Of a stretch of DNA of 64,000 nt, positions 15,319 through 49,700 are shown piece by piece. Within the stretch, counting starts at the first letter, position 1. Each line of letters begins with the position of its first letter. The translations under genes were made by a program, and so were the position numbers. Under the pieces are notes generated by a model. The model worked only from the letters and a program-made list of their open reading frames with translations. It did not search any database and was not told the origin of the DNA. The stretch comes from a virus. The stretch lies in the IMG/VR virus record IMGVR_UViG_3300042197_002234, positions 1 through 64,000 of that record; one strand, written 5' to 3'.

Positions 15319-15833
15319 TATAATCCTCTAAATTCATTATCCACAACCGCAGAAGCTACTATTGTTCTATAATAAGGTTTAAACCCTGCGTAAGTGTGTT
15401 TATTGTCTGATATAACCCTTCCATCATTATTTACCGTGTAGTATCTAACCCTATCTTCAGTTTCGTAATATCCAATATAATCACCATAATTTATATCAAT
15501 ATTTAGTTCGTCCAATTGTTTTTGATAAACAGATATTCTAATGTTACCAGGTTCAAATTGCTCTATTTTAGAATTACCTAAATATTTATTTTCAGGTGCC
15601 ATGACTTGGACGTATGCTTTAAATTCTACAGGTGGTAAAAACTTAATTCCATCTTCAACTGTTTCACCATAAACATCATCAGTTTTAGTTTTATACCTAT
15701 CAACTCTATATAAAACCAAAGTAAAATTCATATCACCATATAACCATTCTTCACCCATAGATAGGTCAAGGTTATAATCTTCATAACCGAAAAATTTACC
15801 AATTCGTGTAATGGGTACTTTATTTGTTGACAT
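15318..15833 (-). CDS. Putative neck / head-closure protein (T4 gp14-like)
   Basis: DDVYGETVEDGIKF and DINYGDYIGY. The likely start is MSTNK at 15833, with TATTTAT 4 nt upstream, rather than 15848. Confidence 0.5.
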   Translation of the reverse strand: MSTNKVPITRIGKFFGYEDYNLDLSMGEEWLYGDMNFTLVLYRVDRYKTKTDDVYGETVEDGIKFLPPVEFKAYVQVMAPENKYLGNSKIEQFEPGNIRISVYQKQLDELNIDINYGDYIGYYETEDRVRYYTVNNDGRVISDNKHTYAGFKPYYRTIVASAVVDNEFRGL

Positions 15834-15882
15834 ATTGATAAATATCAAAAAAATTATTATTATTCTAAATAAGGTTTGTCTT

Positions 15883-17652: not shown

Positions 17653-17690
17653 AATTAAATTTCAGCTTATTTATAGTAAAATAAGCCAAA

Positions 17691-19229: not shown

Positions 19230-19250
19230 TATTTATATAGAAAAGATATT

Positions 19251-31377: not shown

Positions 31378-32408
31378 AGATAGGTATTTTATTTTCTGCT
31401 TATAACTCTGAAAAATATATTGATGGGTGTTTAACGCCATGGTTTAATTTAAAAAATGAATTTGACATTGTTATTGGATGTAATAGTGGAATGTATTCCG
31501 ACTATGTTAATTTTGGTATAGAACCTAAAAACAAATCGACCTTAAAAAAATTGGTTGAGTATGATTTGGATTTTTTAATCTCCACAGGTCCTAAATCATT
31601 ATTAGATGAGAATTCTAGTAAAAATTCAGTACTACATGTTTTAAAGAATTCTTGCGATATCATATGGATTTTAGACTCTGATGAATTTTACACTGAAAAT
31701 GAAATTAGAAATATTATAACATATATACAAAGAACCCCTGAATATGATTGGTATACTGTTAATTTTAAAAATTTAACTTTAACCGATAGAATGTTTATGG
31801 ACGGATTTAATCGCCCTAGAATTTTTAGAACAGACAGAAATGGGGGTATTAATGAATTTTATTTTGATAATCATATCACATATAACGATGGTGAGACTTT
31901 TGAATCCAAACCTCACACATCAATACCAAGAACGGTTGCTTGGGTAGCTCATTACTCTTGGTTGAATGGGGATGTTAGGTCTAAAGAAAAAATAACATAT
32001 CAAAATAATAGATTTTTAAATGGTTGCTCTTTTGAGTGGGATAGCGAAAACAACAAGTTAAGATTTTCTAAAGATTTTTATAATAGAGTTAATTTAGATA
32101 TACCAATTTTACATGAAGAAATTGATATTTTTTCTGATGAGTTTACAATTGATTTTAAAAGAAGTGAAAATAAATTTTATGTACAAAACATAGTAAAACC
32201 ACAAACTTTAACATTTAAAATATATGATTGTATTACTGGTGGATTAATATATGAAACAACCATGGAATTAATTCCTCAATATAATTATTTCATTTATCCA
32301 TCACAAAATAACTTTGATAGTGATGAGAATTTTAAAAAATTTAGAGTTGAGGTCTTGAAAGAAAATCAAATAATACATAATGAATTTATACATTTAAAAT
32401 ATGAATAA
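31374..32408 (+). CDS. GT2-like glycosyltransferase
   Basis: SAYNSEKYI and WILDSDEFY (DxD). Confidence 0.75.
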   Translation: MKIGILFSAYNSEKYIDGCLTPWFNLKNEFDIVIGCNSGMYSDYVNFGIEPKNKSTLKKLVEYDLDFLISTGPKSLLDENSSKNSVLHVLKNSCDIIWILDSDEFYTENEIRNIITYIQRTPEYDWYTVNFKNLTLTDRMFMDGFNRPRIFRTDRNGGINEFYFDNHITYNDGETFESKPHTSIPRTVAWVAHYSWLNGDVRSKEKITYQNNRFLNGCSFEWDSENNKLRFSKDFYNRVNLDIPILHEEIDIFSDEFTIDFKRSENKFYVQNIVKPQTLTFKIYDCITGGLIYETTMELIPQYNYFIYPSQNNFDSDENFKKFRVEVLKENQIIHNEFIHLKYE

Positions 32409-33345
32409 TGTTTTTAAAATAGTTAATATAGAACCTGAAGGTAAAATACATTTTGTTTTTTCAGGGGATGAGTCGGAATGTGAAATATCCATAATAGATA
32501 AAAACACAGATTTAGTTGTTCACAAGACAAATATTTGGTTAACCCAAGATGTGACTTACTGGATTTCAACAGGTGAAAAAAATGCTAAAAGATTAAAAAA
32601 TGTGATTTTTAGAGTTAATTACAACGGTAAAAATTATGATGAGGAATTAAATTTTTCTGGTGAGAATAGATTTTTAGTTATTAATTCTGAACAAATAAAA
32701 CTTAACAATTGTGGTGATGATTTATTTCCAATAGTGTGTGAAATATTTTACGATAAAGTTTATGAAAGAGATTTTGTAAAAGTAGGAATTGATGATATAG
32801 TTGTTGATATTGGGGCTAACTATGGAGTTTTTTCATTGTACACTCAAATGTTCAAACCAAAAAAAGTATATTCTGTAGAACCTGTTAGAACCACCTTTAA
32901 ACAAATGAAAAAAAATTTAGACAAATATGGTGTTGTATGTATCAACAAATCAATAAGTTCAGAAAACGGTTATGAGTCTTTTGCTATTACCGATGTTAAT
33001 GGTAATAACTACGCATTGAAAAATATTGATGGGTATCACCCATCGTCTATAAAAAACCAAGAAATTGTTGAGACAACCACAATAAACCAATTAATATCTG
33101 ATTATGATATACCTCACATAAATTTCTTAAAAGTAGATTGTGAAGGTGGTGAGTATGATTTATTTACAACAATAGATAAAGAATATTTAAAAAATAAAAT
33201 ACAGAAAACCGCAATAGAATACCACTCAAGTAATATTAAAGATACTGTGGTTTCAACACTTTTGGAAAACGGGTTTGTTGTTGAAGATATCATAGGTGAA
33301 CCTGAAATAGGATTAATATACGCATACAACAAAAACTTTAATTAA
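32401..33345 (+). CDS. FkbM-family methyltransferase
   Basis: VVDIGANYG, YSVEP, FLKVDCEGGE. Confidence 0.9.
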   Translation: MNNVFKIVNIEPEGKIHFVFSGDESECEISIIDKNTDLVVHKTNIWLTQDVTYWISTGEKNAKRLKNVIFRVNYNGKNYDEELNFSGENRFLVINSEQIKLNNCGDDLFPIVCEIFYDKVYERDFVKVGIDDIVVDIGANYGVFSLYTQMFKPKKVYSVEPVRTTFKQMKKNLDKYGVVCINKSISSENGYESFAITDVNGNNYALKNIDGYHPSSIKNQEIVETTTINQLISDYDIPHINFLKVDCEGGEYDLFTTIDKEYLKNKIQKTAIEYHSSNIKDTVVSTLLENGFVVEDIIGEPEIGLIYAYNKNFN

Positions 33346-33346
33346 T

Positions 33347-36031
33347 ATGGTAAAGAAAAAACTTTTAGTTGTTACGCCTCACTTAAGTACTGGTGGTGCC
33401 CCTCAAGTTACTTTAAATAAAATAAAATTGTTGATAAATGATTATGAAATTAAGTGTGTTGAGCACGATTTTGTTGCGTGGAGTTTTGTTGTGCAAAGAA
33501 ACCAAATTCAAGAAATGTTGGGTGAAAATTTTATTTCATTAGGTCAAGATAAGTCTCAACTATTATCAATTATTGATGAGTTTAAACCTGATGTAATTTA
33601 TATGGAGGAGTTTCCTGAATTTTTTATGCCAGACGATGTTACAAAAATAATATATTCAAAAGATAGAAAATATACTATTTTAGAAACAACACATGACTCC
33701 AGTTTTCCTGTAAACTCAAAAAGGTGGTTTCCTGATAAATTTATTTTTGTAAGTGCGTTTAATGGTTTTAGATATTCGGTCTATGATGTACCATATGAAA
33801 TTGTTGAGTATCCTGTAGATTATAAAGAAAAAAATAAAACAGAAAATCAAAACTTATTGAATTTTGACCCGTCATATAAACATGTGTTAAATGTTGGTCT
33901 GTTTACGAGGAGAAAAAATCAAAGTTATATTTTTGAAATTGCAAAACTATTAAAAAACTATAAAATAAAATTTCACTTTTTAGGTAATCAAGCCGATAAC
34001 TTTAAAGATTATTGGGAACCTTTAATTAATGACAAACCTGAAAATTGTGTAGTATGGGGAGAAAGAAAAGACGTTCAAAGTTTTATTGAGGCATCAGATT
34101 TATTCTTTTTTGCGTCAAAGGGGGACAGACATAATAAAGAATTAAACCCTATAGCATTAAAAGAGGCTTTAGAATATAAAATACCTATGATGATGCACAA
34201 TTTAGATGTGTATTGTGGTAAGTATAACAATTACGATAATATAACATTTTTAACTGGTGATGTGAACAAAGATAGTCAAAAATTATTGGAACTATTAAAA
34301 CCATATAAAGAAAATTATGAAAACGAGTTGGTCATGATTGGTACTTATCCTAACACCAAATCAAGAGAAAAACTAACTTTAGATTGTATTGATTCTGTTA
34401 AAAAATTAGGTAGAAAAGTTATGTTAGTGTCTCACTACACTGTTTCATCCGAAATTCAAGAAAAGGTCGATTACTATGTGTATGACAAATATAATCCAAC
34501 AACTGAACATTCATACTATACAAGATTTTATAATTACAAACATGATTTTGATGTCGAAATAAATATTAATGGTTTAAAAAATACAAACCAATCTTTACCC
34601 GTACTAACAAATTTAATTAATGGTTTTAGAGCCGCAAAAGATTTAAACTTTGAAAAAGTATTTTACATAACTTACGATGTTATTTTAAACCCTAACGACA
34701 TTGAACACGTTAACAATTCATTTATTGAGGTTGATAGTCACAACGCATATCTATGTACATTACCAACCCCTTTTGGATATGGTATTGAAACTACCGCAAT
34801 GACTTTTAAAACTGATTATTTCTTGCAAAAATTAGAACATATTAGAACACCTAATGATTATAAATTATCAGTTAATAAATTTAATTGTCATAACTTTTTA
34901 GAGGATTTTTTTTGGAATGTATTTTCAAATGAGAATAATGTTAAAATTATCACAAATGAACAAAGCACATTTTTGATAAATTCAGGTAAAGGAGTTTCAT
35001 CTAATTCAGAATATTACTCTATCGTACCAATTAAAAATACAACAGATAAATGGGTGTTTTATTTTTATACCTATAATATTGATAATAGATGTGTTAATGT
35101 TGAGGTTATTGAAAATGGTGATATTTCTTTTTCTAAAAAATTTAAGATTTCAGAACAAAGGGAGTTTTTAAAAGAATTAAAATATAATGGAAATCAGATA
35201 GAAATTACATTAACTTTTTATGAAGATAATATTGTTTATAAAACAGAAAAATATGTTTTAAATAATCAAACAATAACCCAACATAAAAATAACGGATGGT
35301 TTAAATATAAAAAACTACCAAATATTAAATTAGTTCATATACAGACAACTAATAACGATGAGAGAGAACAACTCTCAAGACAATCACTACAACAAGTTAT
35401 TCCACACGGAATTAAATATACTTTACATACTAATGAATTATATAAATCACTTCCACCATCACATAATTGTGTGAGACCTCAATGCGTTTCAATGGAGTTA
35501 TTTGATGAAGAACAGGTTAAACAATTTGGTACCGCTCTAACACCCGCTCACTACGGTTGTTATGAATCTTTTAAAAATGCGATACTGTCTGAATTTGATG
35601 ACGATTTAGATTTTCTAATAGTTTGCGAAGGTGATTGTATTATTGAAGTACCAATTGATGATTTTATTCAAAAATTAAATCAGTCATGTGAAATAATTAG
35701 CCAAGCAAATATTGAGTATTTTTCTTTTGGTGATACTAAAACTTTAGATTTTGGTTGGCATCAGTCAAATGTTATTGAGGATATCCCAAATCAAGATTTA
35801 TTATTTATTACCGATAAAATAATTGGGTTACAGTGTATTATGTTTCCTCGTAAAACTAAAGAATTTTTACATCAACAATTAAGAACTCATAAGTGGGATT
35901 GTGCCGACACTTATTTTAATATGATTTTTGCTGAATATGGTTTAAAAATGGGTATACTAAAAAATAGAATAACTACACAGGCTGACGGTGTATCGTTAAT
36001 AGATAAAGAATATAAAACATTTATAAAATAA
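33347..36031 (+). CDS. Three-domain glycosyltransferase (GT4 + unknown GT-A-like + GT25-like)
   Basis: PHLSTGGAPQV, VGLFTRRKNQ and KEALEY (GT4); a middle domain paralogous to 36031-37011; HYGCYES...VCEGD (GT25-like). Confidence 0.8.
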   Translation: MVKKKLLVVTPHLSTGGAPQVTLNKIKLLINDYEIKCVEHDFVAWSFVVQRNQIQEMLGENFISLGQDKSQLLSIIDEFKPDVIYMEEFPEFFMPDDVTKIIYSKDRKYTILETTHDSSFPVNSKRWFPDKFIFVSAFNGFRYSVYDVPYEIVEYPVDYKEKNKTENQNLLNFDPSYKHVLNVGLFTRRKNQSYIFEIAKLLKNYKIKFHFLGNQADNFKDYWEPLINDKPENCVVWGERKDVQSFIEASDLFFFASKGDRHNKELNPIALKEALEYKIPMMMHNLDVYCGKYNNYDNITFLTGDVNKDSQKLLELLKPYKENYENELVMIGTYPNTKSREKLTLDCIDSVKKLGRKVMLVSHYTVSSEIQEKVDYYVYDKYNPTTEHSYYTRFYNYKHDFDVEININGLKNTNQSLPVLTNLINGFRAAKDLNFEKVFYITYDVILNPNDIEHVNNSFIEVDSHNAYLCTLPTPFGYGIETTAMTFKTDYFLQKLEHIRTPNDYKLSVNKFNCHNFLEDFFWNVFSNENNVKIITNEQSTFLINSGKGVSSNSEYYSIVPIKNTTDKWVFYFYTYNIDNRCVNVEVIENGDISFSKKFKISEQREFLKELKYNGNQIEITLTFYEDNIVYKTEKYVLNNQTITQHKNNGWFKYKKLPNIKLVHIQTTNNDEREQLSRQSLQQVIPHGIKYTLHTNELYKSLPPSHNCVRPQCVSMELFDEEQVKQFGTALTPAHYGCYESFKNAILSEFDDDLDFLIVCEGDCIIEVPIDDFIQKLNQSCEIISQANIEYFSFGDTKTLDFGWHQSNVIEDIPNQDLLFITDKIIGLQCIMFPRKTKEFLHQQLRTHKWDCADTYFNMIFAEYGLKMGILKNRITTQADGVSLIDKEYKTFIK

Positions 36032-37011
36032 TGAAAAAATTAATTGTTATTGGGGCTTACCCAAATACACCAAAAAAGAAAGAAGTTTTAGTTGATGAAA
36101 TAAAATCGTTAAAATCTTTAGATTTTGATTTTATGTTGGTCACACATTATCCTACTCCTGTATATATACAGGAAATGTTTGATTACTACATTTATGATAA
36201 AAATCAAACTTTAACACCATTAGATAAAACAACATATTTTTGGTTTAATAGTGGTTCTTTTCTTGTTAGAATAAATAACTCAAGGCACGCTTTACCTATA
36301 AGTCAAAGTATGTTTAACGCTTTTAAATTTTCTGAAATAAAAAACTATGATTTTGTTTATTTTATTGAAAACGATAATTGGTTTTCAGAGAATGATTCTA
36401 AAAAACTTTCTGATTTGGTTACCACTATGTTTGAAAATAACAAAAAATGTATTTTTTTTAAACCTGAAAGTTATAGAGACAATGGTTCTTACGTTTACGA
36501 AACTCAGTTATTTGGAATAACCCCAAAATATTTTAATCAAGTTTTTAATTTACCTATAACAGAAGAAGAGTACTTTTCACATCCAACATATCCCGTTAGT
36601 TTAGAGTTAGGTTTTTATCAAAAACTTTCTGAGTTTGAAGATGATTTTTTAATAATAAATGAACACTCCTATCAATATTTTAATGAAAGTAAAATTAATA
36701 TTTTTAGGGTTGAAAATTTATTAATAGATTTAGTTTATAATAGTAAAAATCCTGCTCAACCTGTTTTGTTTTGTTATGGTAATAGAGTTTTTGACGACTT
36801 ATATAGAGTAATTGTAAGGTTAAATAACATTATAATTAATGATAGAAATTTACATTCAAACAATTGGTTTTATCAAACATTTGATTTGGATGGTAGTAAT
36901 TTGGTTTTTGAAATTTATAACAATGATGTACTACAAGAAAAAAAATCTTATACTTTAGATGAACACTTAATAGATAATTTAAAAGATAAAGGTATAATAG
37001 ATTTTAATTAA
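36031..37011 (+). CDS. Hypothetical glycosylation protein, paralog of the middle domain of the upstream GT
   Basis: LIVIGAYPNT...MLVTHY aligns with LVMIGTYPNT...MLVSHY. Confidence 0.65.
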   Translation: MKKLIVIGAYPNTPKKKEVLVDEIKSLKSLDFDFMLVTHYPTPVYIQEMFDYYIYDKNQTLTPLDKTTYFWFNSGSFLVRINNSRHALPISQSMFNAFKFSEIKNYDFVYFIENDNWFSENDSKKLSDLVTTMFENNKKCIFFKPESYRDNGSYVYETQLFGITPKYFNQVFNLPITEEEYFSHPTYPVSLELGFYQKLSEFEDDFLIINEHSYQYFNESKINIFRVENLLIDLVYNSKNPAQPVLFCYGNRVFDDLYRVIVRLNNIIINDRNLHSNNWFYQTFDLDGSNLVFEIYNNDVLQEKKSYTLDEHLIDNLKDKGIIDFN

Positions 37012-37012
37012 T

Positions 37013-37558
37013 ATGGCACACAACCAACAACAAAATTTTTACGGTAGGGTTAAAAATAAATTTCCAAAATATTTTAGAGATGTTAAAGTACTTGATATAG
37101 GTTCTTTAGACATAAATGGTAATACAAAACATTTTTTTTCACATCCACTATATTATGTCGGTGTGGACCTTTCAGAAGGTAATAACGTAAATGTGGTTTG
37201 TCCTGGTCACCTTTATGATTCAGGATTCCAATTTGATGTTGTAATGTCTTCTGAGTGTTTTGAACATGATATGTATTACCCAAGGACAATATCAAATATG
37301 ATTAAACTATTAAAACCAAATGGATTAATGATATTTACTTGCGCATCTACAGGAAGACCTGAACATGGTACATTAAGGTCAAATCCTACCGACGCACCAT
37401 TTTTACAAAATATTGATGAAAAATGGGCGAATTATTATAAAAATTTAACAGAGGATGACATTAGAGCAATTATAAATGTTGAAGACATTTTCAGTGATTA
37501 CGGTTTTGAATATGAACCATCTTCATGTGATTTATATTTTTGGGGAATTAAAAAATAA
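37013..37558 (+). CDS. Class I SAM methyltransferase
   Basis: VLDIGSLDING, YVGVD, FDVVMSSECFEH, LKPNG. Confidence 0.9.
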   Translation: MAHNQQQNFYGRVKNKFPKYFRDVKVLDIGSLDINGNTKHFFSHPLYYVGVDLSEGNNVNVVCPGHLYDSGFQFDVVMSSECFEHDMYYPRTISNMIKLLKPNGLMIFTCASTGRPEHGTLRSNPTDAPFLQNIDEKWANYYKNLTEDDIRAIINVEDIFSDYGFEYEPSSCDLYFWGIKK

Positions 37559-37564
37559 TAATTA

Positions 37565-38251
37565 ATGAATGTTGATGTAATTTGTTTAACTAACACATAC
37601 GATTACAGTATGTTTGAAGTAACAAAAAGAGTTATTAAGTCATTACATTTGTCTGAAAAAAATATTAAGTTTAATATTATTCTATTAGAAAGCAATAAAA
37701 ACAATCCATATGTATATACGGATGTTGATTTTTATATAAAACCTGAAGAAGATTTTAATTATAACAAATATTTAAATATCGCAAATAAATACCTAACATC
37801 AGATTGGGTTTTGATTACAAATAATGATGTAATCTATCAAAGAAATTGGTTTTCAAAAATATTAGAGATATATAATAAACGACCTGATATAGAATCTTTC
37901 TCACCTAAAGAAGTACTTTTTTATTCAACAATATACGGAGACCATTTTGATTCTGACGATGAATATTGGGAAAATTATAAAGTAACCGAAGGTCTTTTAG
38001 GATGGTCTTTATTAATGAAAAAAAAAGTTTGGGATGAGGTTTATCCGTGGGACGAACAATTCGATTTTTTTTATCAAGATAATGATTATGCAAAAATAAT
38101 AGAATCAAAAGGTATTAAACACGCAATAGTTAGAGATTCATTGACTTTACATATAGGTAATTTAAATTTCTTTAAAGATGTTGTTGACCACGAAAGAAAT
38201 ACAAAAATGAAAGAAGGGTATAATAAATTTTTAAATAAATGGGGTAATTAA
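37565..38251 (+). CDS. GT2-family glycosyltransferase
   Basis: FNYNKYLN, ITNNDV, WDEQFDFFYQDND. Confidence 0.8.
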   Translation: MNVDVICLTNTYDYSMFEVTKRVIKSLHLSEKNIKFNIILLESNKNNPYVYTDVDFYIKPEEDFNYNKYLNIANKYLTSDWVLITNNDVIYQRNWFSKILEIYNKRPDIESFSPKEVLFYSTIYGDHFDSDDEYWENYKVTEGLLGWSLLMKKKVWDEVYPWDEQFDFFYQDNDYAKIIESKGIKHAIVRDSLTLHIGNLNFFKDVVDHERNTKMKEGYNKFLNKWGN

Positions 38252-40357
38252 ATGAGAATAATACACGTAACACCAGGAATGATACCAATCCCACCTAATG
38301 GATGGGGTGCGGTAGAAAAAATAATTTGGGAATACCATAAAAATTTACAGAAGTTAGGTTATGAATCTGAAATTAGATACCTAAATGAGGTTAACTATAA
38401 AGATGGTGACATCGTACACATCCACATAGCCAATTTAGCTTTGGAGACATATGAAAGAGGAATACCATATATTTTCTCATTACATGACCACCATGTGGTA
38501 TATAATGGAAAAGATTCTTTTAATTATAAACAAAACTTAGAAGCAATTAAAAAATCAGTAGTTTCATTCTGTCACGCAGAATATTTGGTTGATTATTTTG
38601 ATGAAACCGATAAGTTGTTTTATTTGTCGCATGGTGTAAACACAGATTTCTTTAAAGTAGAAAATCCATACAGAAGTGAACATCGTTTATTGTGTTTAGC
38701 TAATAACGGAATCGGTGGTGATTCATCTTATGATAGGAAAGGTTTCAGATATGCAATTGAAGCTGCAAAAAAATTAAATTTACCAATCACTGTCGCGGGC
38801 CCCGATAACAACAAAAACTTCTTTCAACACCATTTAGATTTAATGGATTATGATAAACTAACATTGTTGTTTGATAATCCAAATGAAGACAGTATTTTAG
38901 AGTTGTATAAAAATCACTCAATATTTTTACACCCATCTTCATTAGAAGCTGGTCATCCAAATTTAACATTATTAGAGGCGATATCTTGTAATCTACCAAT
39001 AGTTGGAACTTACGAAGGTAATAGAAAAATACACGGTATGATTGTGACTGAAAGAGATTCAAATCGTGTTGCAAACTCAATTCAAGAAATAATATCAAAT
39101 TATGAATATTATGTTAATGAAACTTTTAAAAATAAAGAAAATTTTGATTGGTCTACAATAACAAATAGATTATCAAAAATGTACAATTTAGTTAGTATTA
39201 TTAAAAAAGAGTATAATTCTGAAGAAACAAAAAGTTTATTAATTAATAATATTGAAAATACATCAAGGTTTGATTATAAAAAAGATAATAACTTAACATT
39301 TAATGTTCATTTTGTAAACAACCCGTTTTTTGAAATTTTAGGTGATTCAGATAAAGAATATAATGTTCTTTTTTATGATAATGATGAACTAATTTATTCA
39401 ACAAAACTTAGAGCCAATATGTGGTCAAAACTTAATAGGTCATATTATACAAATTGGATAATTGAGGTTTACGATGAAGACAAATTAATTTATAGATACA
39501 CAACTAACTTTACAGGTAAAAGAGTTTTTATTTCATTTGACTCAAAGTCATTAGGGGATAATGTATCTTGGATACCGTATGTGTTAGAATTTAAGAAAAA
39601 ACACAATTGTAATGTTGTTGTTTCAACATTTTGGAATAAACTATTTAAGGATGTGTATCCCGAACTCGAGTTTGTTGAGCCAGGTAGTGTTGTGGATGAT
39701 TTAGTCGCAATGTATAGAATAGGATGGTTTTATGATAATAATCAAGAACCAGTTTTACCAAGTACTATTCCACTACAAAAAGCAATTACAAATATTTTGG
39801 GATTAGAGTTTGAGGAAATAAGACCAAGAATTCACTTTGAACCAAAAGAAAGATTGTTTGAGGAAAAGTATATCACAATCGCAAATGAATCTACTGCAGG
39901 TTTAAAGTTATGGAACAATCCTAATGGTTGGCCAGAATTAGTATCATATTTAAAATCAAAAGGTTATAGAGTGGTTAATGTATCTAAAAATGGTGAAAGA
40001 TTAAAAGGTGTTACACAACTAAAAGACACGTCAATTGAAAATACCATGAATGCTATTTATCATAGTGAGTTCTTTATTGGTTTATCTAGTGGGTTGTCTT
40101 GGTTAACATGGGGGTTAGGTAAACATGTAGTTATGATTTCAAACTTCACTGAGTATGACCATGAATTTACTTCAAACTGCACAAGAATTACAAACCCATC
40201 TGTCTGTCATGGATGTTGGAATAACCCTATGTTTAAGTTTGATAAGGGTGATTGGAATTGGTGTCCTGAGCATAAAGGAACTGAAAGACATTTTGAATGT
40301 CATAAATCAATAACTGCGGAAATGGTTATAGAAAAAATAAAACATTTATTACAATGA
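38252..40357 (+). CDS. GT4 fused to an Aah/TibC-type protein O-heptosyltransferase
   Basis: N-terminal GT4 (GWGAVEKI, EAGHPNLTLLEA). C-terminal half: SLGDNVSWIPY..EF..KHNC, FFIGLSSGLSWLTW, CHGCW...WCP.H..T.R.FEC, matching the TibC pattern including four Fe-binding Cys. Confidence 0.9.
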   Translation: MRIIHVTPGMIPIPPNGWGAVEKIIWEYHKNLQKLGYESEIRYLNEVNYKDGDIVHIHIANLALETYERGIPYIFSLHDHHVVYNGKDSFNYKQNLEAIKKSVVSFCHAEYLVDYFDETDKLFYLSHGVNTDFFKVENPYRSEHRLLCLANNGIGGDSSYDRKGFRYAIEAAKKLNLPITVAGPDNNKNFFQHHLDLMDYDKLTLLFDNPNEDSILELYKNHSIFLHPSSLEAGHPNLTLLEAISCNLPIVGTYEGNRKIHGMIVTERDSNRVANSIQEIISNYEYYVNETFKNKENFDWSTITNRLSKMYNLVSIIKKEYNSEETKSLLINNIENTSRFDYKKDNNLTFNVHFVNNPFFEILGDSDKEYNVLFYDNDELIYSTKLRANMWSKLNRSYYTNWIIEVYDEDKLIYRYTTNFTGKRVFISFDSKSLGDNVSWIPYVLEFKKKHNCNVVVSTFWNKLFKDVYPELEFVEPGSVVDDLVAMYRIGWFYDNNQEPVLPSTIPLQKAITNILGLEFEEIRPRIHFEPKERLFEEKYITIANESTAGLKLWNNPNGWPELVSYLKSKGYRVVNVSKNGERLKGVTQLKDTSIENTMNAIYHSEFFIGLSSGLSWLTWGLGKHVVMISNFTEYDHEFTSNCTRITNPSVCHGCWNNPMFKFDKGDWNWCPEHKGTERHFECHKSITAEMVIEKIKHLLQ

Positions 40358-40734
40358 AAATAGAAGTATCAATTGGTGAGATTGTTGACAAATTAACAAT
40401 TTTGGAAATTAAAAAAGATAAAATAAAGGATGAAAATAAATTGGTTGATATCTTAAAAGAGTATAACTATTTAAAAGATGTTGTAACAAATGAAATTGGA
40501 TTTTCATTAGAATCCGAAGAATATAAAGATTTATTGGAAACAAATAAAAAACTTTGGGATATTGAAGACCATATTAGAAATAAAGAAAAAAGAAAATCTT
40601 TTGATATTGAATTTATTGAGTTGGCTAGAAATGTGTATATTACAAATGATGTTAGAGCATCACAAAAAAAAGATATAAATCTGAAACTTAATTCAGAATT
40701 TATAGAACACAAATCATATTCTGACTATAAATAA
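40354..40734 (+). CDS. DUF6165-like protein
   Basis: IEVSIGEIVDKLTILEIK...LWDIEDHIR...FIELARNVYITND.R...K..IN. Confidence 0.7.
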   Translation: MKIEVSIGEIVDKLTILEIKKDKIKDENKLVDILKEYNYLKDVVTNEIGFSLESEEYKDLLETNKKLWDIEDHIRNKEKRKSFDIEFIELARNVYITNDVRASQKKDINLKLNSEFIEHKSYSDYK

Positions 40735-40768
40735 AAAAAGGGGGGTTTTAAAACTCCCTTTTTTTATA
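40729..40768. terminator. Bidirectional terminator between the GT operon and the giant repeat gene
   Basis: ATAAAAAAAGGGGGGTTTT/AAAACTCCCTTTTTTTAT inverted repeat with A/T tracts on both sides, between convergent genes. Confidence 0.8.
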
Positions 40769-43700
40769 ATGGGTCATTACATTCGTTATAAACTAATGTG
40801 TATGTAAAATATCTAGGACCCGCATTAGTACCATCTGAGTTAAAACCAACTATAATGTTTGTGTTACATTCAAGTATTTCGTCCTGTAATGTAAGGGTAA
40901 AACAAGCCACGCCAGCGGCGTTAAATGAGGTAACATCACTTGCTATTTCAGTTATAGTAAATGTAGATGATGTTAAATCATCACATTCGTATTTAAAAAG
41001 ATATGCGGTTACACTATTAGCCAAACCATCAACAGGACTTGTTACAGTACCACACAATTTTATAGTTCCAGAACTTAACATGTCGATAGGTACTGGTACA
41101 CCTATAAATCCTTGTGTTCTGGTATCGAAGGGTGATATTCCATCCCAAGCGATATCCCAAGGACATCCATTCCAACCACAAGTATTATTGGCGATGTAAA
41201 CGTCAGTATCATTAGGTCCTTGTGTCCAACTACCTGAATTTGATGCTAATAAAAATTGTCTTTTAATGTTAATTGTTGCATCACCTGTAGTGCCTTCAAC
41301 AATACCACAAGACCCCGCAACTGTTAAACCTGTGACACTAGTTACCGTAGTAGCACCATCGGTGACAGTTAAAGAACCACCACCACTTGATGTACCCGAA
41401 CTACCCGAGGTTCCTGATGAACCTGTTTGACCTGCAGTACCTGAACTACCTGAACTACCACTTGAACCTGAGGTACCGCTAGCCCCACTAACACCACTTG
41501 TGCCCGCAGTTCCATTAGCTCCGCTAGTACCTGAAGTTCCTTTAGTTCCTGAGGTTCCACTAGACCCTGAAGTACCCGAACTACCTGAAGAACCACTTGA
41601 ACCTGATGTTCCACTTGTTCCTGAAGTACCGTTAACTCCTGAAGTACCACTTGTACCATTAACTCCTGAAGTACCACTTGTACCAATCGAACCATCACAA
41701 CCATTACAACATACTTTGAAACATAATACATCACCATAAGAGAATGGACTTGCGGAACTTGAAGATGCGAATATCGGACCTTCAATAAAGAAGGAAGTAG
41801 AATTCAATCTTCCAACACCAGACCAATCTGAATAGTGTACAAATTTTGTTGGGTCTGCTTGATTATATATTGTTAAATTTCCACCACAAATACATTTGTT
41901 GAAAACTTCATATTGATTTACACCATTGTTATCAAAATCATAGAAGTGTAAATATGTTGCTGCCGATACAGTTAACGTAGTTGCTGAAGAACCTGTGATA
42001 AACGCAAATTCACCATTAGAATCAGGAGTACTATCGTTTGTTAACGTATATGGTAAACAATAAGCTGATACCCCACTAGTTCCTGATGTTCCACTTGTTC
42101 CTGAACTACCTGACGTTCCTCTAGTTCCTGATGTTCCTGAAGAGCCGCTGCTGCCACTTGAGCCCGAAGAACCCGACGTTCCACTTGTTCCTGATGAACC
42201 ACTTGAACCTGAACTACCTGATGTTCCACTTGAACCTGAAGAACCTGAACTTCCTGATGAACCACTGCTACCACTAGTACCAGATGTACCCGAACTACCT
42301 GATGAACCACTTGAACCTGAAGAACCGCTACTTCCACTTGTGCCTGATGTACCTGAGCTACCTGATGTTCCGCTAGTTCCTGAACTACCTGATGAGCCGC
42401 TTGAACCTGACGAACCACTAGTGCCTGATGTTCCTGAAGAACCACTACTTCCACTAGAACCTGAACTTCCTGAAGAACCACTTGTGCCCGAAGTACCACT
42501 ACTTCCGCTAGACCCTGAACTTCCGCTCGAACCTGAAGTACCCGAAGAACCGCTACTACCGCTTGTTCCTGATGTTCCACTTGAGCCTGACGTTCCGCTA
42601 GTCCCTGAAGAACCACTTATACCTGAAGTTCCTGAACTACCTGATGTTCCTGAAGAGCCAGATGACCCCGAAGAACCTGAGCTACCTGATGAACCGCTAG
42701 ACCCACTTGTACCCGCAGTCCCTGAACTTCCTGATGTTCCACTTGTTCCTGATGAGCCACTTGTACCGCTCGAACCTGAGGAACCACTATTTCCACTTGA
42801 ACCCGACGTTCCACTTGTTCCTGAAGAACCACTACTACCGCTTGAGCCCGAGCTACCTGAAGTACCACTAGTTCCTGAACTTCCTGAAGAGCCGCTACTA
42901 CCACTTGACCCTGAAGAACCGCTACTACCGCTTGTTCCTGAAGTTCCACTATTTCCTGAAGAACCACTTGAACCACTACTACCGCTAGAACCCGATGTTC
43001 CACTAGTTCCTGAACTTCCTGAAGAGCCGCTACTACCACTTGACCCTGATGTTCCGCTAGTCCCTGAAGAACCTGAAGTACCACTTGTACCACTAGTTCC
43101 CGAACTACCTGATGAACCACTACTACCGCTAGAACCTGATGAACCGCTAGTTCCACTTGAACCTGAAGAGCCAGAACTTCCTGAAGAACCACTACTACCG
43201 CTCGAACCTGAACTACCTGATGTCCCACTTGTACCTGAAGAACCGCTTGTACCTGACGTGCCGCTTGAGCCTGATGACCCACTACTTCCTGAACTACCGC
43301 TAGAACCTGAAGTTCCTGAACTGCCAGAAGAACCACTACTACCGCTAGAACCTGAAGTTCCTGAAGAACCTGATGTTCCGCTAGTACCTGATGACCCTGA
43401 ACTTCCACTACTACCTGAAGAACCGCTTGTACCGCTAGTACCCGAACTACCTGAAGTTCCACTTGTTCCTGATGACCCTGAACTTCCACTACTACCGCTA
43501 GAACCTGATGTTCCACTAGTTCCCGAAGAGCCGCTTGTACCGCTTGTTCCTGAACTACCCGAAGAACCACTACTACCGCTTGAGCCCGAGCTACCTGAAG
43601 TTCCGCTTGTTCCTGACGAGCCGCTACTACCCGAACTTCCACTACTACCCGATGTTCCACTCGTTCCTGATGAGCCACTTGTGCCACTAGAACCTGAGCT

Positions 43701-46700
43701 ACCTGAAGAACCGCTAATTCCACTTGTTCCCGAAGAACCTGAACTTCCTGAAGAACCACTACTTCCTGATGTACCGCTAGTACCGCTAGTACCTGAACTA
43801 CCGCTAGAACCTGAACTTCCTGAAGAACCGCTGCTACCACTAGAGCCTGATGTGCCGCTAGTTCCCGAACTTCCACTTGTACCGCTAGTTCCTGAAGAAC
43901 CTGAACTACCACTAGAACCCGAAGCACCGCTTGTACCTGATGAGCCGCTTGAACCTGAAGAGCCTGATGAACCACTACTACCGCTAGTTCCTGATGTACC
44001 ACTTGACCCACTACTACCGCTTGAACCTGAACTTCCTGATGAGCCTGATGTACCGCTTGTTCCTGAAGAACCACTTGAGCCTGAACTTCCCGATGAACCA
44101 CTACTACCGCTAGTTCCTGATGAGCCACTACTACCACTTGTACCAGATGTACCTGAACTTCCTGAAGTACCACTAGTTCCTGATGTTCCCGAACTACCAC
44201 TCGTACCCGAACTTCCTGAAGAACCGCTAGTACCTGCAGTACCTGAAGAACCCGATGTTCCACTTGAACCTGAGCTACCTGATGAACCGCTACTACCGCT
44301 AGTTCCTGATGAACCACTAGTACCGCTAGTACCTGAACTACCGCTTGAACCTGAAGAACCACTACTTCCACTTGTGCCGCTAGTACCTACAGTTCCTGAT
44401 GAACCACTAGTACCGCTAGTACCTGAACTACCGCTTGAACCTGAAGAACCACTACTTCCACTAGTACCCGAAGTACCTGAACTTCCTGATGTACCGCTTG
44501 AGCCTGAACTACCCGATGTTCCACTAGTTCCTGAAGAACCACTAGACCCTGAACTACCTGAAGTTCCGCTAGTTCCTGAAGAACCTGATGTTCCGCTAGT
44601 TCCTGAAGAACCACTAGACCCTGAACTACCTGAAGTTCCGCTAGTTCCACTTGAGCCTGATGACCCTGAACTTCCACTACTACCTGAAGAACCACTTGTA
44701 CCGCTAGTACCCGAACTACCTGAAGTTCCACTTGTTCCTGAAGAGCCTGATGAACCACTACTACCGCTTGAGCCCGAGCTACCTGAAGAGCCGCTTGTTC
44801 CTGCAGTTCCTGAACTACCTGAAGAACCACTACTACCTGATGTTCCACTAGTTCCTGATGAACCACTTGTACCGCTAGTTCCACTTGAACCACTACTACC
44901 TGAAGTACCTGAAGAGCCACTAGACCCTGAACTTCCGCTACTACCGCTTGAACCCGATGTTCCACTTGTACCGCTAGTTCCTGATGTTCCTGAAGAACCT
45001 GATGTTCCGCTTGTTCCTGAACTACCTGATGAACCACTACTACCACTAGTCCCTGAAGTACCACTAGTTCCTGAAGTACCACTAGTTCCCGAACTTCCTG
45101 AAGACCCTGATGTTCCGCTAGTACCTACAGTACCTGATGTTCCTGAAGAACCACTTGTACCGCTTGTACCTGACGAACCACTAGACCCACTAGAACCTGA
45201 ACTACCACTTGTTCCTGAACTTCCTGAAGTCCCACTAGTACCTGATGAACCTGATGTTCCACTAGTTCCACTTGAACCTGAACTTCCTGAAGAGCCACTT
45301 GTACCGCTAGTTCCTGATGTTCCACTAGACCCTGAACTTCCTGATGAACCCGAAGTTCCACTAGTTCCTACAGTACCACTACTTCCGCTAGACCCTGAAC
45401 TTCCGCTCGAACCTGAAGTACCCGAAGAACCGCTACTACCGCTTGTTCCTGATGTACCTGACGAGCCTGATGTTCCACTAGACCCTGAACTTCCTGAAGT
45501 CCCACTAGTACCAGAACTTCCTGATGTTCCGCTAGTTCCTGAACTACCGCTTGTTCCTGATGTACCTGACGAGCCTGATGTTCCACTAGACCCTGAACTT
45601 CCTGATGTTCCGCTAGTACCACTTGTACCCACAGTTCCTGAGCTTCCTGACGTACCGCTTGAGCCTGAGCTTCCTGAAGTCCCACTAGTACCAGAACTTC
45701 CTGATGTTCCGCTAGTTCCTGATGAACCGCTTGAACCTGAGCTACCTGAAGAACCTGATGTTCCACTTGTACCCGAACTTCCTGAAGACCCTGAACTTCC
45801 ACTACTACCGCTAGAACCTGATGTTCCACTAGTTCCCGAAGAGCCGCTTGTACCGCTTGTTCCTGAAGTTCCACTTGAACCTGAAGTACCGCTAGAACCA
45901 GAAGAGCCGCTACTACCACTAGAACCTGATGTTCCACTTGTACCCGCAGTACCTGAGCTTCCTGATGAACCGCTACTACCTGATGAGCCACTTGTACCGC
46001 TTGTTCCTGAACTACCCGAAGAACCACTACTACCGCTAGAACCTGATGTTCCACTTGTACCCGAAGTACCTGAGCTTCCTGACGTTCCACTAGTTCCCGA
46101 AGAACCACTAGACCCTGAAGAGCCTGAACTACCTGAAGTTCCACTAGTTCCTGATGAGCCACTTGTGCCCGAAGTTCCACTTGAACCTGAACTTCCTGAT
46201 GAACCGCTACTACCTGATGTCCCACTTGTACCTGAAGAACCACTAGTTCCTGATGAACCACTACTACCACTTGTACCAGATGTACCTGAACTACCACTTG
46301 TACCTGATGTTCCTGAAGAACCGCTTGACCCTGAAGAACCTGAGCTACCTGAAGTTCCGCTTGTTCCCGAAGAGCCTGATGTACCACTTGTGCCTGAAGT
46401 TCCACTTGAACCTGAACTTCCTGATGAACCTGACGTACCGCTAGTTCCTGAAGAACCACTACTTCCGCTTGAACCTGAGGTTCCACTTGTACCTACAGTC
46501 CCTGATGTACCTGAACTACCTGATGTTCCGCTACTTCCACTAGAACCTGAACTTCCGCTTGTTCCTGATGTTCCTGAACTACCACTTGTACCGCTAGTTC
46601 CTGATGAACCACTTGAACCCGAACTTCCTGATGAACCACTACTACCGCTAGTACCATTAGTTCCACTTGTTCCCGAAGAACCTGATGTTCCACTTGACCC

Positions 46701-49700
46701 ACTACTACCACTTGTACCTGATGTTCCTGAAGAACCGCTTGACCCTGAAGAACCTGAGCTACCTGAAGTTCCGCTTGTACCGCTTGTTCCCGAACTTCCT
46801 GATGTACCGCTAGTTCCTGAAGAACCACTTGTTCCTGAAGTTCCACTTGAACCTGAACTTCCTGATGAGCCACTACTACCGCTTGAACCTGAGGAACCGC
46901 TACTACCGCTAGTTCCTGATGAACCACTACTTCCACTAGAACCTGATGTTCCGCTAGTACCTGAACTACCGCTCGAGCCTGATGTACCGCTAGTACCCGA
47001 ACTACCTGATGAACCACTACTACCACTTGAACCTGAGCTACCTGATGTTCCGCTAGTTCCAGAAGAACCACTAGACCCTGAACTTCCACTACTTCCTGAT
47101 GAACCTGATGTTCCACTAGTACCTACAGTCCCACTTGAGCCAGATGTACCCGAACTACCTGACGAACCACTAGAACCTGAACTACCACTTGTTCCGCTAG
47201 TTCCTGATGTTCCACTTGTTCCTGAAGTCCCACTAGTACCTGATGAACCTGATGTTCCACTTGTTCCCGAAGAGCCTGATGTACCACTTGAGCCTGAACT
47301 ACCAGAAGACCCCGATGTACCACTACTTCCACTTGTGCCGCTAGTTCCTGATGAACCATCTGTTCCACTAGTACCTGAGCTACCTGAAGTGCCGCTAGTT
47401 CCTGATGAACCACTTGACCCTGATGTTCCGCTAGTTCCTGAAGTTCCGCTAATACCCGAAGTACCACTTGTACCGCTAGTACCTGATGTTCCTGAAGAAC
47501 CATCAGTTCCACTTGTTCCTGAAGTACCACTACTACCATCTGTTCCTGATGTTCCACTTGACCCTGATGTACCCGAAGTTCCTGAGCTACCATCAGTACC
47601 TGAAGTTCCGCTTGAACCCGATGTTCCTGATGAACCACTAGTTCCTGATGAACCACTAGTTCCTGATGAACCACTAGTTCCGCTAGTTCCTGATGAGCCA
47701 TCAGTACCACTACTACCGTCTGTACCACTAGAACCTGATGTTCCGTTAGTTCCACTTGTACCATTACTACCGTCAGTACCTGAACTCCCACTAGAACCTG
47801 ATGTTCCGCTAGTTCCACTTGTACCATTACTACCGTCAGTACCTGAAGTTCCGCTTGTTCCCGAACTACCACTAGTACCTGATGTTCCACTAGTTCCTGA
47901 CGAACCACTGCTACCACTAGTACCTGATGTGCCATTACTACCATCAGTTCCTGATGAACCTGAAGTTCCACTAGTTCCGCTACTACCATCTGTTCCGCTT
48001 GTTCCTGAAGTACCGCTTGAACCTGATGTTCCACTTGTTCCTGAAGTACCGCTTGAACCTGAAGTTCCACTTGTTCCTGAAGAACCTGAGGTACCACTAC
48101 TTCCGTCAGTACCGCTACTACCATCTGTTCCGCTTGTTCCCGATGAACCACTTATACCTGAAGTACCGCTACTACCATCTGTTCCACTAGTTCCTGAAGT
48201 ACCACTACTACCATCAGTTCCGCTAGTTCCACTTGTTCCTGATGAACCATCTGTTCCGCTAGTTCCGCTTGAACCTGAAGTTCCGCTAGTTCCCGAAGAA
48301 CCTGATGTACCACTAGTACCACTACTACCATCTGTTCCTGATGTACCACTAGTTCCTGAAGTACCATTACTTCCATCAGTTCCGCTTGAACCTGATGTAC
48401 CACTTGTTCCTTTAGAACCATTTACACCGCTAATACCTGAAGAACCTGATGTACCATTAGTTCCTGAAGTTCCACTTGTTCCTGATGAACCATCTGTTCC
48501 GCTAGTTCCACTTGAACCATCTGTTCCGCTAGTTCCACTTGTTCCTGATGAACCGCTTGTTCCTGAGGTTCCACTTGTTCCAGAACTTCCATCAGTACCA
48601 CTTGTTCCTGAAGTTCCTGATGAACCATCTGTTCCGCTAGTACCTGATGTTCCTGAAGAGCCATCCGTTCCGCTATTACCCGAAGTTCCCGATGAACCAT
48701 CTGTTCCTGAATTTCCGCTAGTTCCCGATGAACCATCTGTTCCTGAAGTTCCGCTAGTTCCGCTTGAACCATCTGTTCCTGAAGTTCCGCTAGTTCCGCT
48801 TGAACCATCCGTACCTGAAGTTCCACTAGTTCCCGATGAACCATCTGTACCTGAAGTTCCACTAGTTCCCGATGAACCATCCGTTCCGCTAGTACCCGAA
48901 GTTCCCGATGAACCATCCGTTCCGCTAGTACCACTAGTTCCTGATGAACCATCTGTTCCGCTAGTACCACTAGTTCCTGATGAACCATCTGTTCCTGACG
49001 TACCACTAGTTCCTGATGAACCATCTGTTCCACTGGTTCCTGAAGAACCGCTTGTCCCACTACTACCATCCGTACCTGAACTACCACTTGTTCCTGAAGT
49101 GCCGCTACTACCATCAGTACCTGAAGTTCCACTAGTACCACTTGAGCCATCAGTACCTGATGAACCATCCGTACCACTAGTACCACTAGTTCCTGAAGTT
49201 CCGCTTGAACCTGATGTTCCACTAGTTCCTGAAGTACCATTACTTCCGTCAGTTCCGCTTGAACCTGATGTTCCACTAGTTCCTGAACTTCCATCAGTAC
49301 CACTTGTTCCTGAAGAACCATCAGTTCCGCTAGTACCTGAAGTTCCACTTGTTCCTGAAGAACCGTCTGTCCCACTAAAACCACTTGTCCCTGAAGTTCC
49401 ATTTGAACCATCTGTACCTGAAGTACCACTTGTTCCTGAAGAACCACTAGTACCCGAAGAACCGTCAGTTCCGCTTGAACCTGATGTGCCGCTACTACCA
49501 TCAGTCCCTGAACTACCATCAGTCCCTGAACTACCATCAGTCCCTGAACTACCATCAGTCCCTGAACTACCTGACGTACCACTAGTTCCTGATGTACCAT
49601 TAGAACCATCCACACCACTTATTCCTGAAGAACCTGAAGAACCACTTGTTCCTGAAGAACCGTTTGTCCCACTAGAACCACTTGTCCCTGAACTTCCATC

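Follow-up and report, generated by a model that had tools for sequence, protein, structure and literature searches.

A GT4-TibC/Aah-type fusion protein encoded beside a giant collagen-like fibre in a large tailed phage

A tailed phage from a metagenomic virus record encodes a 701-aa protein (P0001) whose C-terminal domain is, by sequence and predicted fold, a member of the TibC/Aah family of protein O-glycosyltransferases, and whose gene converges on that of a giant Ser/Thr-rich collagen-like fibre (P0002). The reading that we favour, and hold to be reasonably likely, is that P0001 is a bifunctional O-glycosyltransferase which sugar-coats the adjacent fibre, while the genes of the surrounding block extend and methyl-cap the glycan. 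The TibC-like domain, a variant within a known enzyme family, would then probably be an O-glycosyltransferase of collagen-like fibres. For P0001 itself the fibre is proposed as substrate through guilt by association, and this pairing of an enzyme with a Ser/Thr/Gly fibre recurs across 43 non-redundant viral lineages and in a bacterial genome.

To our knowledge, the capsid and tail-tube tails of mycobacteriophages are the one case to date in which phages have been shown to glycosylate virion proteins of their own. If the favoured reading is true, a second and widespread phage virion-glycosylation system would be added, in which a TibC-family enzyme acts specifically on collagen-like fibres; TibC-like sequences occur on at least 521 IMG/VR contigs and in 2220 clusters (90% identity) of metagenomic protein sets. 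The family, so far known solely for glycosylating adhesins of pathogens, would gain a new class of acceptor, and the folding of proline-free collagens would have a natural answer. An Arg-to-Thr change in the active site offers a handle on donor specificity, and the system is testable directly in E. coli.

The fusion gene, its block and the neighbouring fibre

The window, that is the whole stretch of DNA analysed, consists of the first 64,000 nucleotides of IMG/VR virus record IMGVR_UViG_3300042197_002234, which is 195,527 bases long with a CheckV completeness of 65%. Tail sheath, family-B DNA polymerase and helicase genes mark the record as that of a large tailed phage, in agreement with the original prediction of a phage-encoded enzyme; the DNA polymerase, at ~24-29% identity to those of isolated phages, did not place it in a named phage group or point to a host. 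The fusion gene is the ninth of ten tightly packed genes for glycosyltransferases, methyltransferases and proteins of unknown function that converge on P0002, and the seven genes upstream of it (30436-38251, plus strand) abut or overlap. The features are as follows, with assignments from Pfam and PHROG unless stated otherwise:

28442-29689, minus strand: GT60/Gnt1-type polypeptide GlcNAc-transferase-like gene (PF11397, E 2.8e-66; phrog_24687, E 1.5e-167)
30436-31377, plus strand: GT9-like (LPS-heptosyltransferase-type) gene, head of the block
31374-32408, plus strand: GT2-like gene
32401-33345, plus strand: FkbM methyltransferase gene
33347-36031, plus strand: gene for a GT4-containing protein of 894 aa
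36031-37011, plus strand: gene without assigned function (ORF list)
37013-37558, plus strand: SAM methyltransferase gene
37565-38251, plus strand: GT2-like gene
38252-40357, plus strand: GT4-TibC fusion gene P0001 (open ORF, 701 aa; Pfam GT4-type and TIGR04414 matches)
38252-39196, plus strand: GT4-type (GT-B, Glycos_transf_1) domain, aa 1 to ~315 (PF00534, PF13692, phrog_33732)
39284-40354, plus strand: TibC/Aah-like domain, aa 345-701 (TIGR04414, PDB TibC match, AF2 model)
40354-40734, plus strand: DUF6165 gene, 126 aa (PF19662, E 1.4e-9), its start overlapping the fusion-gene stop
40735-40763, no strand: A-run, G-rich hairpin and T-run between the convergent genes (read from the sequence; terminator-like in both directions)
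40764-50795, minus strand: giant collagen-like fibre gene P0002 (ORF, 3343 aa; Pfam Collagen, PHROG tail-fibre families)

The frame at 38252-40357 had been described as an Aah/TibC-type enzyme fused to a GT4, and both halves were confirmed. Its translation contains all the motifs quoted for it (YYTNWIIEV, KRVFISF, SLGD, WIPY, FIGLSSGLSWLTW and CHGCW...WCPEH...FEC), and the HMM search that had been suggested as a check matched aa 372-698 to NCBIfam TIGR04414 (hepto_Aah_TibC, an equivalog with a curated cut-off of 200 bits) at 286.6 bits (E 2.7e-85), a match reproduced on the whole genome at 285.5 bits. With phmmer against PDB sequences, aa 371-693 matched TibC itself (4RB4/4RAP, E 1e-49); in a PHROG search the TibC-like domain was covered by no family. 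In the N-terminal half, aa 161-287 matched both PF00534 (Glycos_transf_1; 39.4 bits, Pfam cut-off 26.4) and PF13692 (Glyco_trans_1_4; 39.6 bits, Pfam cut-off 27), and aa 1-151 matched the glycosyltransferase family phrog_33732. A GT4 domain lies directly N-terminal of the TibC-like domain in 8/8 long homologues scanned, the megaphage LR756501 has the same architecture at 45% identity to P0001, and some relatives fuse methyltransferase, GT2 and GT32 modules with GT4-TibC in one chain.

The AF2 model of the TibC-like domain (pLDDT 90.2) recovers the protomer fold of TibC, and model and sequence together give an N-terminal beta-barrel, a GT-B-like catalytic core and an inserted four-Cys finger. 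Its top Foldseek matches are the TibC structures 4RAP and 4RB4 (TM 0.88, rmsd 2.7 Å, ~370 columns), and the TM against WaaC/WaaF is about 0.4-0.5. The model of the full-length 701-aa chain has a pLDDT of 68.9, with the GT4 half and linker below 50, and domain packing was not read from it.

The Ser/Thr/Gly fibre predicted next to the enzyme does exist, and the 3′ end of its gene lies 406 bases beyond the end of the fusion gene. P0002 contains 983 Gly-X-Y triplets, 926 of them in a single run, in which X is Thr or Ser and Y is Ser or Asp (mostly Ser); 1927 of its 3343 residues are Ser or Thr and 17 are Pro, and a triple helix is predicted from the uninterrupted Gly-X-Y periodicity. The protein matches the Collagen family (PF01391, E 1.3e-31) and PHROG tail-fibre families, and has two C-terminal non-repeat domains; a Pfam search of its first 60 and last 559 aa gave a match in the last 559 aa only, to the Collagen family only. 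Its repeats are degenerate at the DNA level (63-90% matches), and it is the sole Gly/Ser/Thr repeat ORF in the 195.5-kb record. The hairpin between the two genes was missed by a consensus scan for sigma-70 promoters and terminators, whose promoter-like sites were no more frequent than in shuffled sequence.

Active site, assembly and donor sugar

The catalytic base of TibC, Asp-110, corresponds to D436 of P0001 (in SLGD) and is found in 44/44 viral-contig representatives and 74/74 bacterial homologues, while Thr-226 and Lys-230, which contact the beta-phosphate in TibC, correspond to T548 and K552 and are invariant in the 44 representatives; Trp-305, which contacts heptose O4, is W617, retained in 43/44 (residue roles in TibC from PMC4358343). 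The finger cysteines Cys-339/342/358/370 (C652, C655, C671 and C683) are also invariant among the viral-contig representatives; the finger of P0001 is intact and predicted to bind iron.

A different picture emerges at Arg-286, which in TibC contacts adenine N1 and is the basis of ADP-sugar specificity, and whose replacement (R286A) abolishes or strongly reduces activity (PMC4358343). The equivalent residue in P0001 is T598, and Thr, Val or Ala occupies this position in 46/48 members of the viral clade, whereas 72/74 bacterial homologues have Arg, the two exceptions being those beside collagen-like genes. The beta-hairpin thumb, which builds the ring dodecamer of TibC (PMC4358343), is likewise reduced, with a median of 13 residues in the viral clade against 23 in the bacterial homologues (~10 shorter) and no hairpin at this site in the AF2 model. 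In a phylogenetic tree the split between the viral clade and the bacterial enzymes has an SH-aLRT support of 100%. Because most of the thumb hairpin is gone, the viral clade probably works in an assembly other than the TibC 12-mer. An Fe-binding, oligomeric enzyme had been predicted; the invariant cysteines favour the first attribute, and the shortened thumb leaves the dodecamer in doubt.

The name heptosyltransferase is not supported as originally given, both in view of the Arg-286 to Thr change and of the gene content of the phage. Domain searches of the record (195.5 kb, 65% complete) found no GmhA, RfaE domain II or NTP_transferase gene, and an Epimerase search gave one match, in a 237-aa open frame at ~113.8 kb; nor was GmhA found in five larger relatives, of which two are complete. 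The host must supply the donors, as a nucleotide-sugar pathway is lacking from the record, and GmhA- and RfaE-II-like genes are present in MAGs that hold near-identical phage contigs and are candidate hosts. By analogy with TibC the first sugar may be heptose, but since the Arg by which TibC recognises the adenine of ADP-heptose is gone from the viral clade, another nucleotide sugar is about equally likely. With Arg-286 and ~10 thumb residues missing from the viral clade, and no heptose-pathway gene found in the phage, neither heptose nor a ring oligomer is proven.

These observations bear on the possibility that P0001 is a canonical ADP-heptose-dependent, dodecameric Aah/TibC-type heptosyltransferase, in which the loss of Arg and the shorter thumb are neutral drift. 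Such an enzyme would be expected to score above the equivalog cut-off and to keep Asp-110, Thr-226, Lys-230, Trp-305 and the finger cysteines, as P0001 does, and the heptose-pathway genes of the candidate hosts fit it too, as does the Ser found at the position of TibC Pro-300, which is shared with Aah, a user of ADP-L,D-heptose (PMC4358343). We nevertheless consider it unlikely, though far from negligible: drift does not sit easily with the effect of R286A on TibC and the near-complete absence of this Arg from the viral clade, nor with the short thumb and the full support for the split from the bacterial enzymes.

Association with Ser/Thr-rich fibres

Within 10 kb downstream of the enzyme, a convergent ORF with Ser/Thr Gly-X-Y repeats or a Gly/Ser/Thr-rich composition is present in 25/34 non-redundant relatives (each with 6 kb or more of sequence downstream) and upstream in only 6/35, counts which are inflated by conserved synteny because most of the associated loci belong to related phages. 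Nine of the 34 representatives have no such ORF within 10 kb downstream; in 4/5 'negative' records, repeats were present just beyond the fetched sequence. One of the nine represents an abundant lineage, L084, whose exact protein occurs on 101 contigs and whose enzyme lies inside a large glycan-building cluster; aminotransferase and acetyltransferase genes are part of this cluster, and within 10 kb there is no fibre.

The association was also approached from the fibre side. A TibC-like gene was found in 12/44 viral records picked solely for (Gly-Ser/Thr-Ser/Thr)x7 DNA versus 0/47 control records picked for Gly-Pro-X repeats (Fisher p = 6.7e-5), the base rate being 521 TibC-like stretches in 2.9 million contigs; this result speaks against the possibility, raised with the original prediction, that TibC-like genes occur in phages regardless of Ser-rich repeat proteins. 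A 238-kb Pseudobdellovibrionaceae contig carries same-clade TibC-like, LamG and collagen-repeat genes together. In some relatives the nearby fibre has 15-residue repeats matching a beta-roll Pfam family and terminates in a Peptidase_S74 domain, which suggests that the type of acceptor varies among relatives while the pairing persists. The adjacent fibre, proposed from the outset as the substrate, remains the best candidate on the combined evidence of the viral lineages, the bacterial genome and the fibre-side search with its Gly-Pro control.

The enzyme and its block might instead glycosylate other virion proteins (capsid, sheath or Thr/Pro-rich proteins) or host LPS or capsule, the fibre being merely a late-region neighbour. 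The PHROG class of related transferases is 'moron, auxiliary metabolic gene and host takeover', the block is headed by an LPS-heptosyltransferase-type gene, the L084 enzyme stands apart from any nearby fibre, and the known mycobacteriophage virion glycosylation targets capsid and tail-tube subunits (as cited in PMC12619734). However, each characterised member of the TibC family glycosylates an adjacently encoded repeat protein (PMC4358343), the fibre-side search links the enzyme to Ser/Thr repeats and not to fibres or structural modules generally, and the link is also seen in a bacterial chromosome context, so that we regard this alternative as rather improbable. That the TibC-like domain is catalytically dead, serving the fibre only as a chaperone or docking module, is scarcely credible, because invariance of catalytic, donor-binding and metal-binding residues across lineages 48-86% identical to the P0001 domain is expected only under selection for catalysis, and nothing specific favours it beyond the loss of Arg-286, which could be read in this way.

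Proposed mechanism and comparison with known systems

In the fibre-coating mechanism that we favour, the TibC-like domain would act in the host cytoplasm during infection, using donors supplied by the host to attach a first sugar to the Ser/Thr hydroxyls in Gly-(Thr/Ser)-Ser triplets of P0002. The glycan would then be lengthened and capped with methyl groups by the fused GT4 domain, which the recurrent fusion suggests may add the second sugar, along with the remaining transferases and three methyltransferases of the block, so that the fibre would end up densely coated with sugars. A different assembly would suit a rod-like trimeric acceptor, not a beta-helix threaded through a ring, and if known glycosylated collagens are a guide, the sugars may stabilise or solubilise the proline-free triple helix. 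A more far-reaching version, doubtful at present, is that the viral clade has dispensed with both the contact to the adenine of ADP and the 12-mer ring and has specialised in coating collagen-like or, in some phages, beta-roll-like fibres, with sugars that would let nearly 1000 proline-free triplets fold into a stable ~0.8-micrometre bottlebrush on aquatic phages.

The nearest known systems are TibC-TibA and Aah-AIDA-I of E. coli (BAHT), which the P0001 domain resembles in HMM family, predicted fold, catalytic Asp and Thr/Lys/Trp donor contacts, and in its place beside a very long Ser-rich repeat protein, its presumed acceptor. It differs from them in being phage-encoded and fused to a GT4 domain, in having Thr at Arg-286 and a thumb ~10 residues shorter, in belonging to a separate clade, and in a gene that converges on its partner, where the TibC/Aah gene precedes its partner in an operon. 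Its presumed acceptor is also of another kind: a Gly-X-Y collagen-like fibre takes the place of the autotransporter beta-helix, whereas canonical TibC acts on beta-helix strand-loop-strand repeats and not on collagen triplets (PMC4358343).

Glycosylated collagen-like proteins offer further parallels. The triplet repeats of BclA carry O-linked oligosaccharides, some of whose sugars are methylated, made by dedicated neighbouring genes. These collagen-like GXT repeats belong to the Bacillus anthracis exosporium (Daubenspeck et al., 2004, pmid 15152001, cited in PMC11923368), and P0002 is also a microbial collagen-like filament with triplet repeats; BclA differs in being a spore protein with short Gly-Pro-Thr repeats and enzymes that are not TibC-like. 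In the cuticle collagen of Riftia, Thr residues at the Y position are galactosylated (Mann et al., 1996, pmid 8757292, cited in PMC11923368), a precedent for sugar on Thr replacing hydroxyproline in stabilising the helix that is relevant to a P0002 with 17 Pro; that collagen is made by an animal, its enzymes are unrelated, and by sequence the Y position of P0002 is mostly Ser. Mycobacteriophage glycosyltransferases O-glycosylate their own structural proteins (Freeman et al., 2023, pmid 37329881, cited in PMC12619734), but they modify capsid and tail-tube subunits at their C-terminal tails, do not belong to the TibC family and involve no collagen-like acceptor. No paper describing the pairing emerged from literature searches that combined TibC or heptosyltransferase with phage, or collagen-like fibres with phage glycosyltransferases; the 'moraphage' paper names core glycosyltransferases and mentions neither collagen nor heptose (PMC12619734).

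Two further genes near the enzyme may be noted. A DUF6165 homologue is found in 19/43 related loci, directly downstream of the enzyme gene (as in L084) or at the head of the cluster, a frequency and an inconstant adjacency that rule it out as an obligatory partner. The GT60/Gnt1-type gene at 28442-29689 is possibly a second starter of protein O-glycosylation, to judge from its sequence matches.

The fusion protein and its phage

The 701-aa protein encoded by the ORF at 38252-40357 (+) was placed by the original prediction in the autotransporter heptosyltransferase family, and an HMM search against that family agreed. TIGR04414 (NCBIfam), the equivalog model for the Aah/TibC 'autotransporter strand-loop-strand O-heptosyltransferase', matched aa 372-698 with 286.6 bits (cut-off 200), a match also recovered in a search of the genome. 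TibC (4RB4/4RAP) was the sole significant PDB-sequence match (phmmer, E ~1e-49, aa 371-693), and all of the TibC-pattern motifs claimed for the ORF were found in its translation. A GT4-type C-terminal Rossmann half lies at aa 161-287 (Pfam PF00534, 39.4 bits; PF13692, 39.6 bits; both exceeding their cut-offs), which bears out the predicted fusion of an Aah/TibC-family domain to a GT4, and a weak Pfam GT9 match covers aa 533-642. That the gene is phage-encoded is confirmed by the tail sheath, family-B DNA polymerase and helicase genes of the window and by the IMG/VR virus record itself (195,527 bases, CheckV completeness 65%), whose first 64 kb make up the window. The polymerase shares only ~24-29% identity with its counterparts in isolated phages, and the phage therefore represents an uncultured lineage.

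Features of the window
9154-12489, minus strand: tail sheath gene, a phage marker
20751-23465: family-B DNA polymerase gene, a phage marker
28442-29689, minus strand: GT60/Gnt1-type polypeptide GlcNAc-transferase-like gene (PF11397, E 2.8e-66; phrog_24687, E 1.5e-167)
30436-40734, plus strand: ten abutting or overlapping genes, including the fusion gene
Between this block and the fibre gene: A-run, hairpin and T-run, 29 bases
40764-50795, minus strand: collagen-like fibre gene, 3343 aa (Pfam Collagen, E 1.3e-31)

The sheath-family match of the 1111-aa tail sheath protein is limited to the last ~300 residues, and the protein thus carries a large N-terminal extension with no such match.

Catalytic residues and the viral branch

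In TibC, Asp-110 is the catalytic base, Thr-226 and Lys-230 contact the beta-phosphate, Trp-305 contacts heptose O4, and Cys-339/342/358/370 hold a ferric ion (PMC4358343). The window protein keeps all of these (D436, T548, K552, W617, C652, C655, C671 and C683); the TibC numbering was verified on the alignment, where the D110A mutant chain has Ala and the other chain Asp. The Asp, Thr, Lys and four Cys do not vary among 44 non-redundant viral-contig sequences, 43 of which also have the Trp. The window protein lacks, however, Arg-286, which contacts adenine N1 as the stated basis for ADP-sugar use, and whose mutation (R286A) abolishes or strongly reduces activity (PMC4358343); T598 takes its place. 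This position is Thr, Val or Ala in 46/48 viral-clade members and Arg in 72/74 bacterial homologues, the two exceptions (L090 and L091) both adjoining collagen-like genes. The TibC Pro-300 position is Ser, as in Aah.

TibC protomers join hand in hand into a dodecamer through a beta-hairpin thumb (PMC4358343). The thumb region is shorter in the viral clade (median 13 residues, versus 23 in bacteria), and aa 345-701, modelled by AlphaFold2 from a 39-sequence alignment (pLDDT 90.2, pTM 0.89), show no hairpin at this site. The model superposes on TibC with TM 0.88 and rmsd 2.7 Å, the next folds being WaaC/WaaF (TM ~0.4-0.5). In a maximum-likelihood tree of 122 sequences, all viral sequences and six low-GC MAG contigs are separated from 72 bacterial enzymes (SH-aLRT support 100%). 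The domain is thus a real family member, in a separate branch without two functionally defined TibC features; judged by its residues and predicted fold, it is probably catalytically active.

Pairing with Ser/Thr-rich fibres

The candidate acceptor, as originally proposed, is the adjacent fibre, whose gene converges with the block across the A-run/hairpin/T-run. The protein holds 983 Gly-X-Y triplets (longest run 926), with Thr (480) or Ser (473) at X and Ser (883) or Asp (65) at Y; Ser and Thr total 1927 residues and Pro 17. Its collagen part has matches among the PHROG tail-fibre families, and the 195.5-kb record has no second ORF of this kind. Its repeats are degenerate in DNA sequence (63-90% matches; periods multiples of 9), which speaks for selection acting on the protein and against faulty assembly. 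Between 42000 and 50000, G+C is ~0.48-0.50 in the fibre repeats against ~0.27-0.33 elsewhere, with strongly negative GC skew, an effect of the Gly, Ser and Thr codons that the minus strand carries. The other frames and the opposite strand contain long spurious ORFs. No Pfam or PHROG family matches the 889-aa ORF at 51169-53838 (-), which lies immediately downstream of the start of the fibre gene.

The opposing possibility, that phages carry TibC-like genes whether or not they have Ser-rich repeats, was not borne out in four tests (relatives of the enzyme, type of acceptor, a search from the fibre side, and loci outside phages). The 101 IMG/VR contigs with close relatives formed 43 clusters at 90% identity; of the 34 cluster representatives that extend 6 kb or more past the gene, 25 have a convergent Ser/Thr Gly-X-Y or Gly/Ser/Thr-rich ORF within 10 kb downstream. 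On the upstream side only 6/35 representatives have such an ORF. Four of five 'negative' records searched whole contained (Gly-Ser/Thr-Ser/Thr) repeats, just past the stretch first examined or at the contig end. Conversely, 12/44 viral records chosen solely for (GGN-WSN-WSN)x7 carry a TibC-like gene (10 of the 12 above the cut-off; mostly open frames of ~700-780 aa, like that of the window), versus 0/47 records chosen for Gly-Pro-X periodic repeats (2.60 and 1.78 Mb in total, respectively; Fisher p 6.7e-5). Across 2.9 million contigs there are 521 TibC-like stretches, which sets the base rate. The association is specific, short of proof, the loci being mostly from related phages and one abundant lineage (L084) showing no fibre in view.

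Features of related loci
L049:14466-20954, minus strand: fibre with repeats matching a beta-roll family (LbR_Ice_bind), ending in a Peptidase_S74 chaperone domain
L031:16998-21044, minus strand: fibre with repeats matching a beta-roll family (LbR_Ice_bind)
L091:9932-13608, on a 238-kb Pseudobdellovibrionaceae MAG contig: TibC-like, LamG-domain and 534-aa collagen-repeat genes together

In some related phages (L049, L031) the TibC-like gene lies 3-6 kb from a giant fibre of a non-collagen kind. Its 15-residue Gly/Ser/Thr/Asn repeats match the beta-roll Pfam family LbR_Ice_bind, a repeat type nearer in character to the classical adhesin acceptor. The L091 contig has ordinary bacterial genes, and its TibC-like gene is of the viral clade, with Val at the Arg-286 position. 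The 735-kb megaphage LR756501 (L003:9208-17178) encodes a GT4-TibC fusion (45% identity, Arg-286 kept) two genes from a 699-aa GTS/GSS collagen-like protein, with a 1161-aa ORF between, in a record that carries no annotation. At typical bacterial loci a giant Gly/Ser/Thr-rich ORF follows the enzyme gene on the same strand within 250 bases; a giant Ser-rich ORF in this place is known for Aah and TibC. A literature search for a TibC-like enzyme paired with a collagen-like fibre in phages found no paper; the JGI pipeline already labels homologues Aah/TibC-type.

A putative glycosylation pathway, its donor and its host

The block comprises GT9-like, GT2-like, FkbM methyltransferase, 894-aa GT4-containing, unknown, SAM methyltransferase, second GT2-like, GT4-TibC fusion and DUF6165 genes. 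Just upstream, on the opposite strand, the GT60/Gnt1-type gene may encode a second starter of protein O-glycosylation. The SAM methyltransferase and GT2-like protein are separate genes directly upstream of the fusion gene; in all eight longer homologues scanned, a GT4 immediately precedes the TibC-like domain at its N-terminal side, with methyltransferase, GT2 or GT32 modules fused further upstream. That these modules are found now fused, now separate, speaks for one shared pathway, and it is reasonable to infer that the GT4 domain would add the second sugar, as predicted. Fibre Ser/Thr residues would be O-glycosylated in the cytoplasm, and the glycan extended by the GT4 domain and other transferases and methyl-capped. 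The enzyme would work as a putative non-ring assembly suited to a rod-like trimer. By analogy, the sugars may keep a proline-free triple helix stable or soluble; glycosylated BclA (pmid 15152001) and glycosylated Riftia collagen (pmid 8757292), both as cited in PMC11923368, are precedents.

The record contains no GmhA, RfaE domain II or NTP-transferase genes, and GmhA is absent from five larger relatives (two complete), so the donors are taken to be host-made. Chitinophagaceae and other MAGs holding near-identical phage contigs encode GmhA- and RfaE-II-like genes, which makes host ADP-heptose a plausible donor, binning being weak evidence for the host. Since the adenine contact is lost, the case for heptose as the first sugar is about evenly balanced.

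In the abundant L084 lineage, whose own TibC-like protein recurs unchanged on 101 contigs, the enzyme lies in a large glycan cluster with the fibre not in view. This cluster holds DegT, PglD-like and acetyltransferase genes and, at 15221-19515 (-), 2OG-Fe(II) oxygenase domains, one of them joined to a GT2, recalling collagen hydroxylase-glycosyltransferase enzymes. Three short low-GC contigs (L086, L087 and L088), nearly identical to viral contigs L046 and L030, are binned in Sediminibacterium, Chitinophaga and 'Bacteroides' MAGs, and represent phage DNA binned in error or else hint at Bacteroidota hosts.
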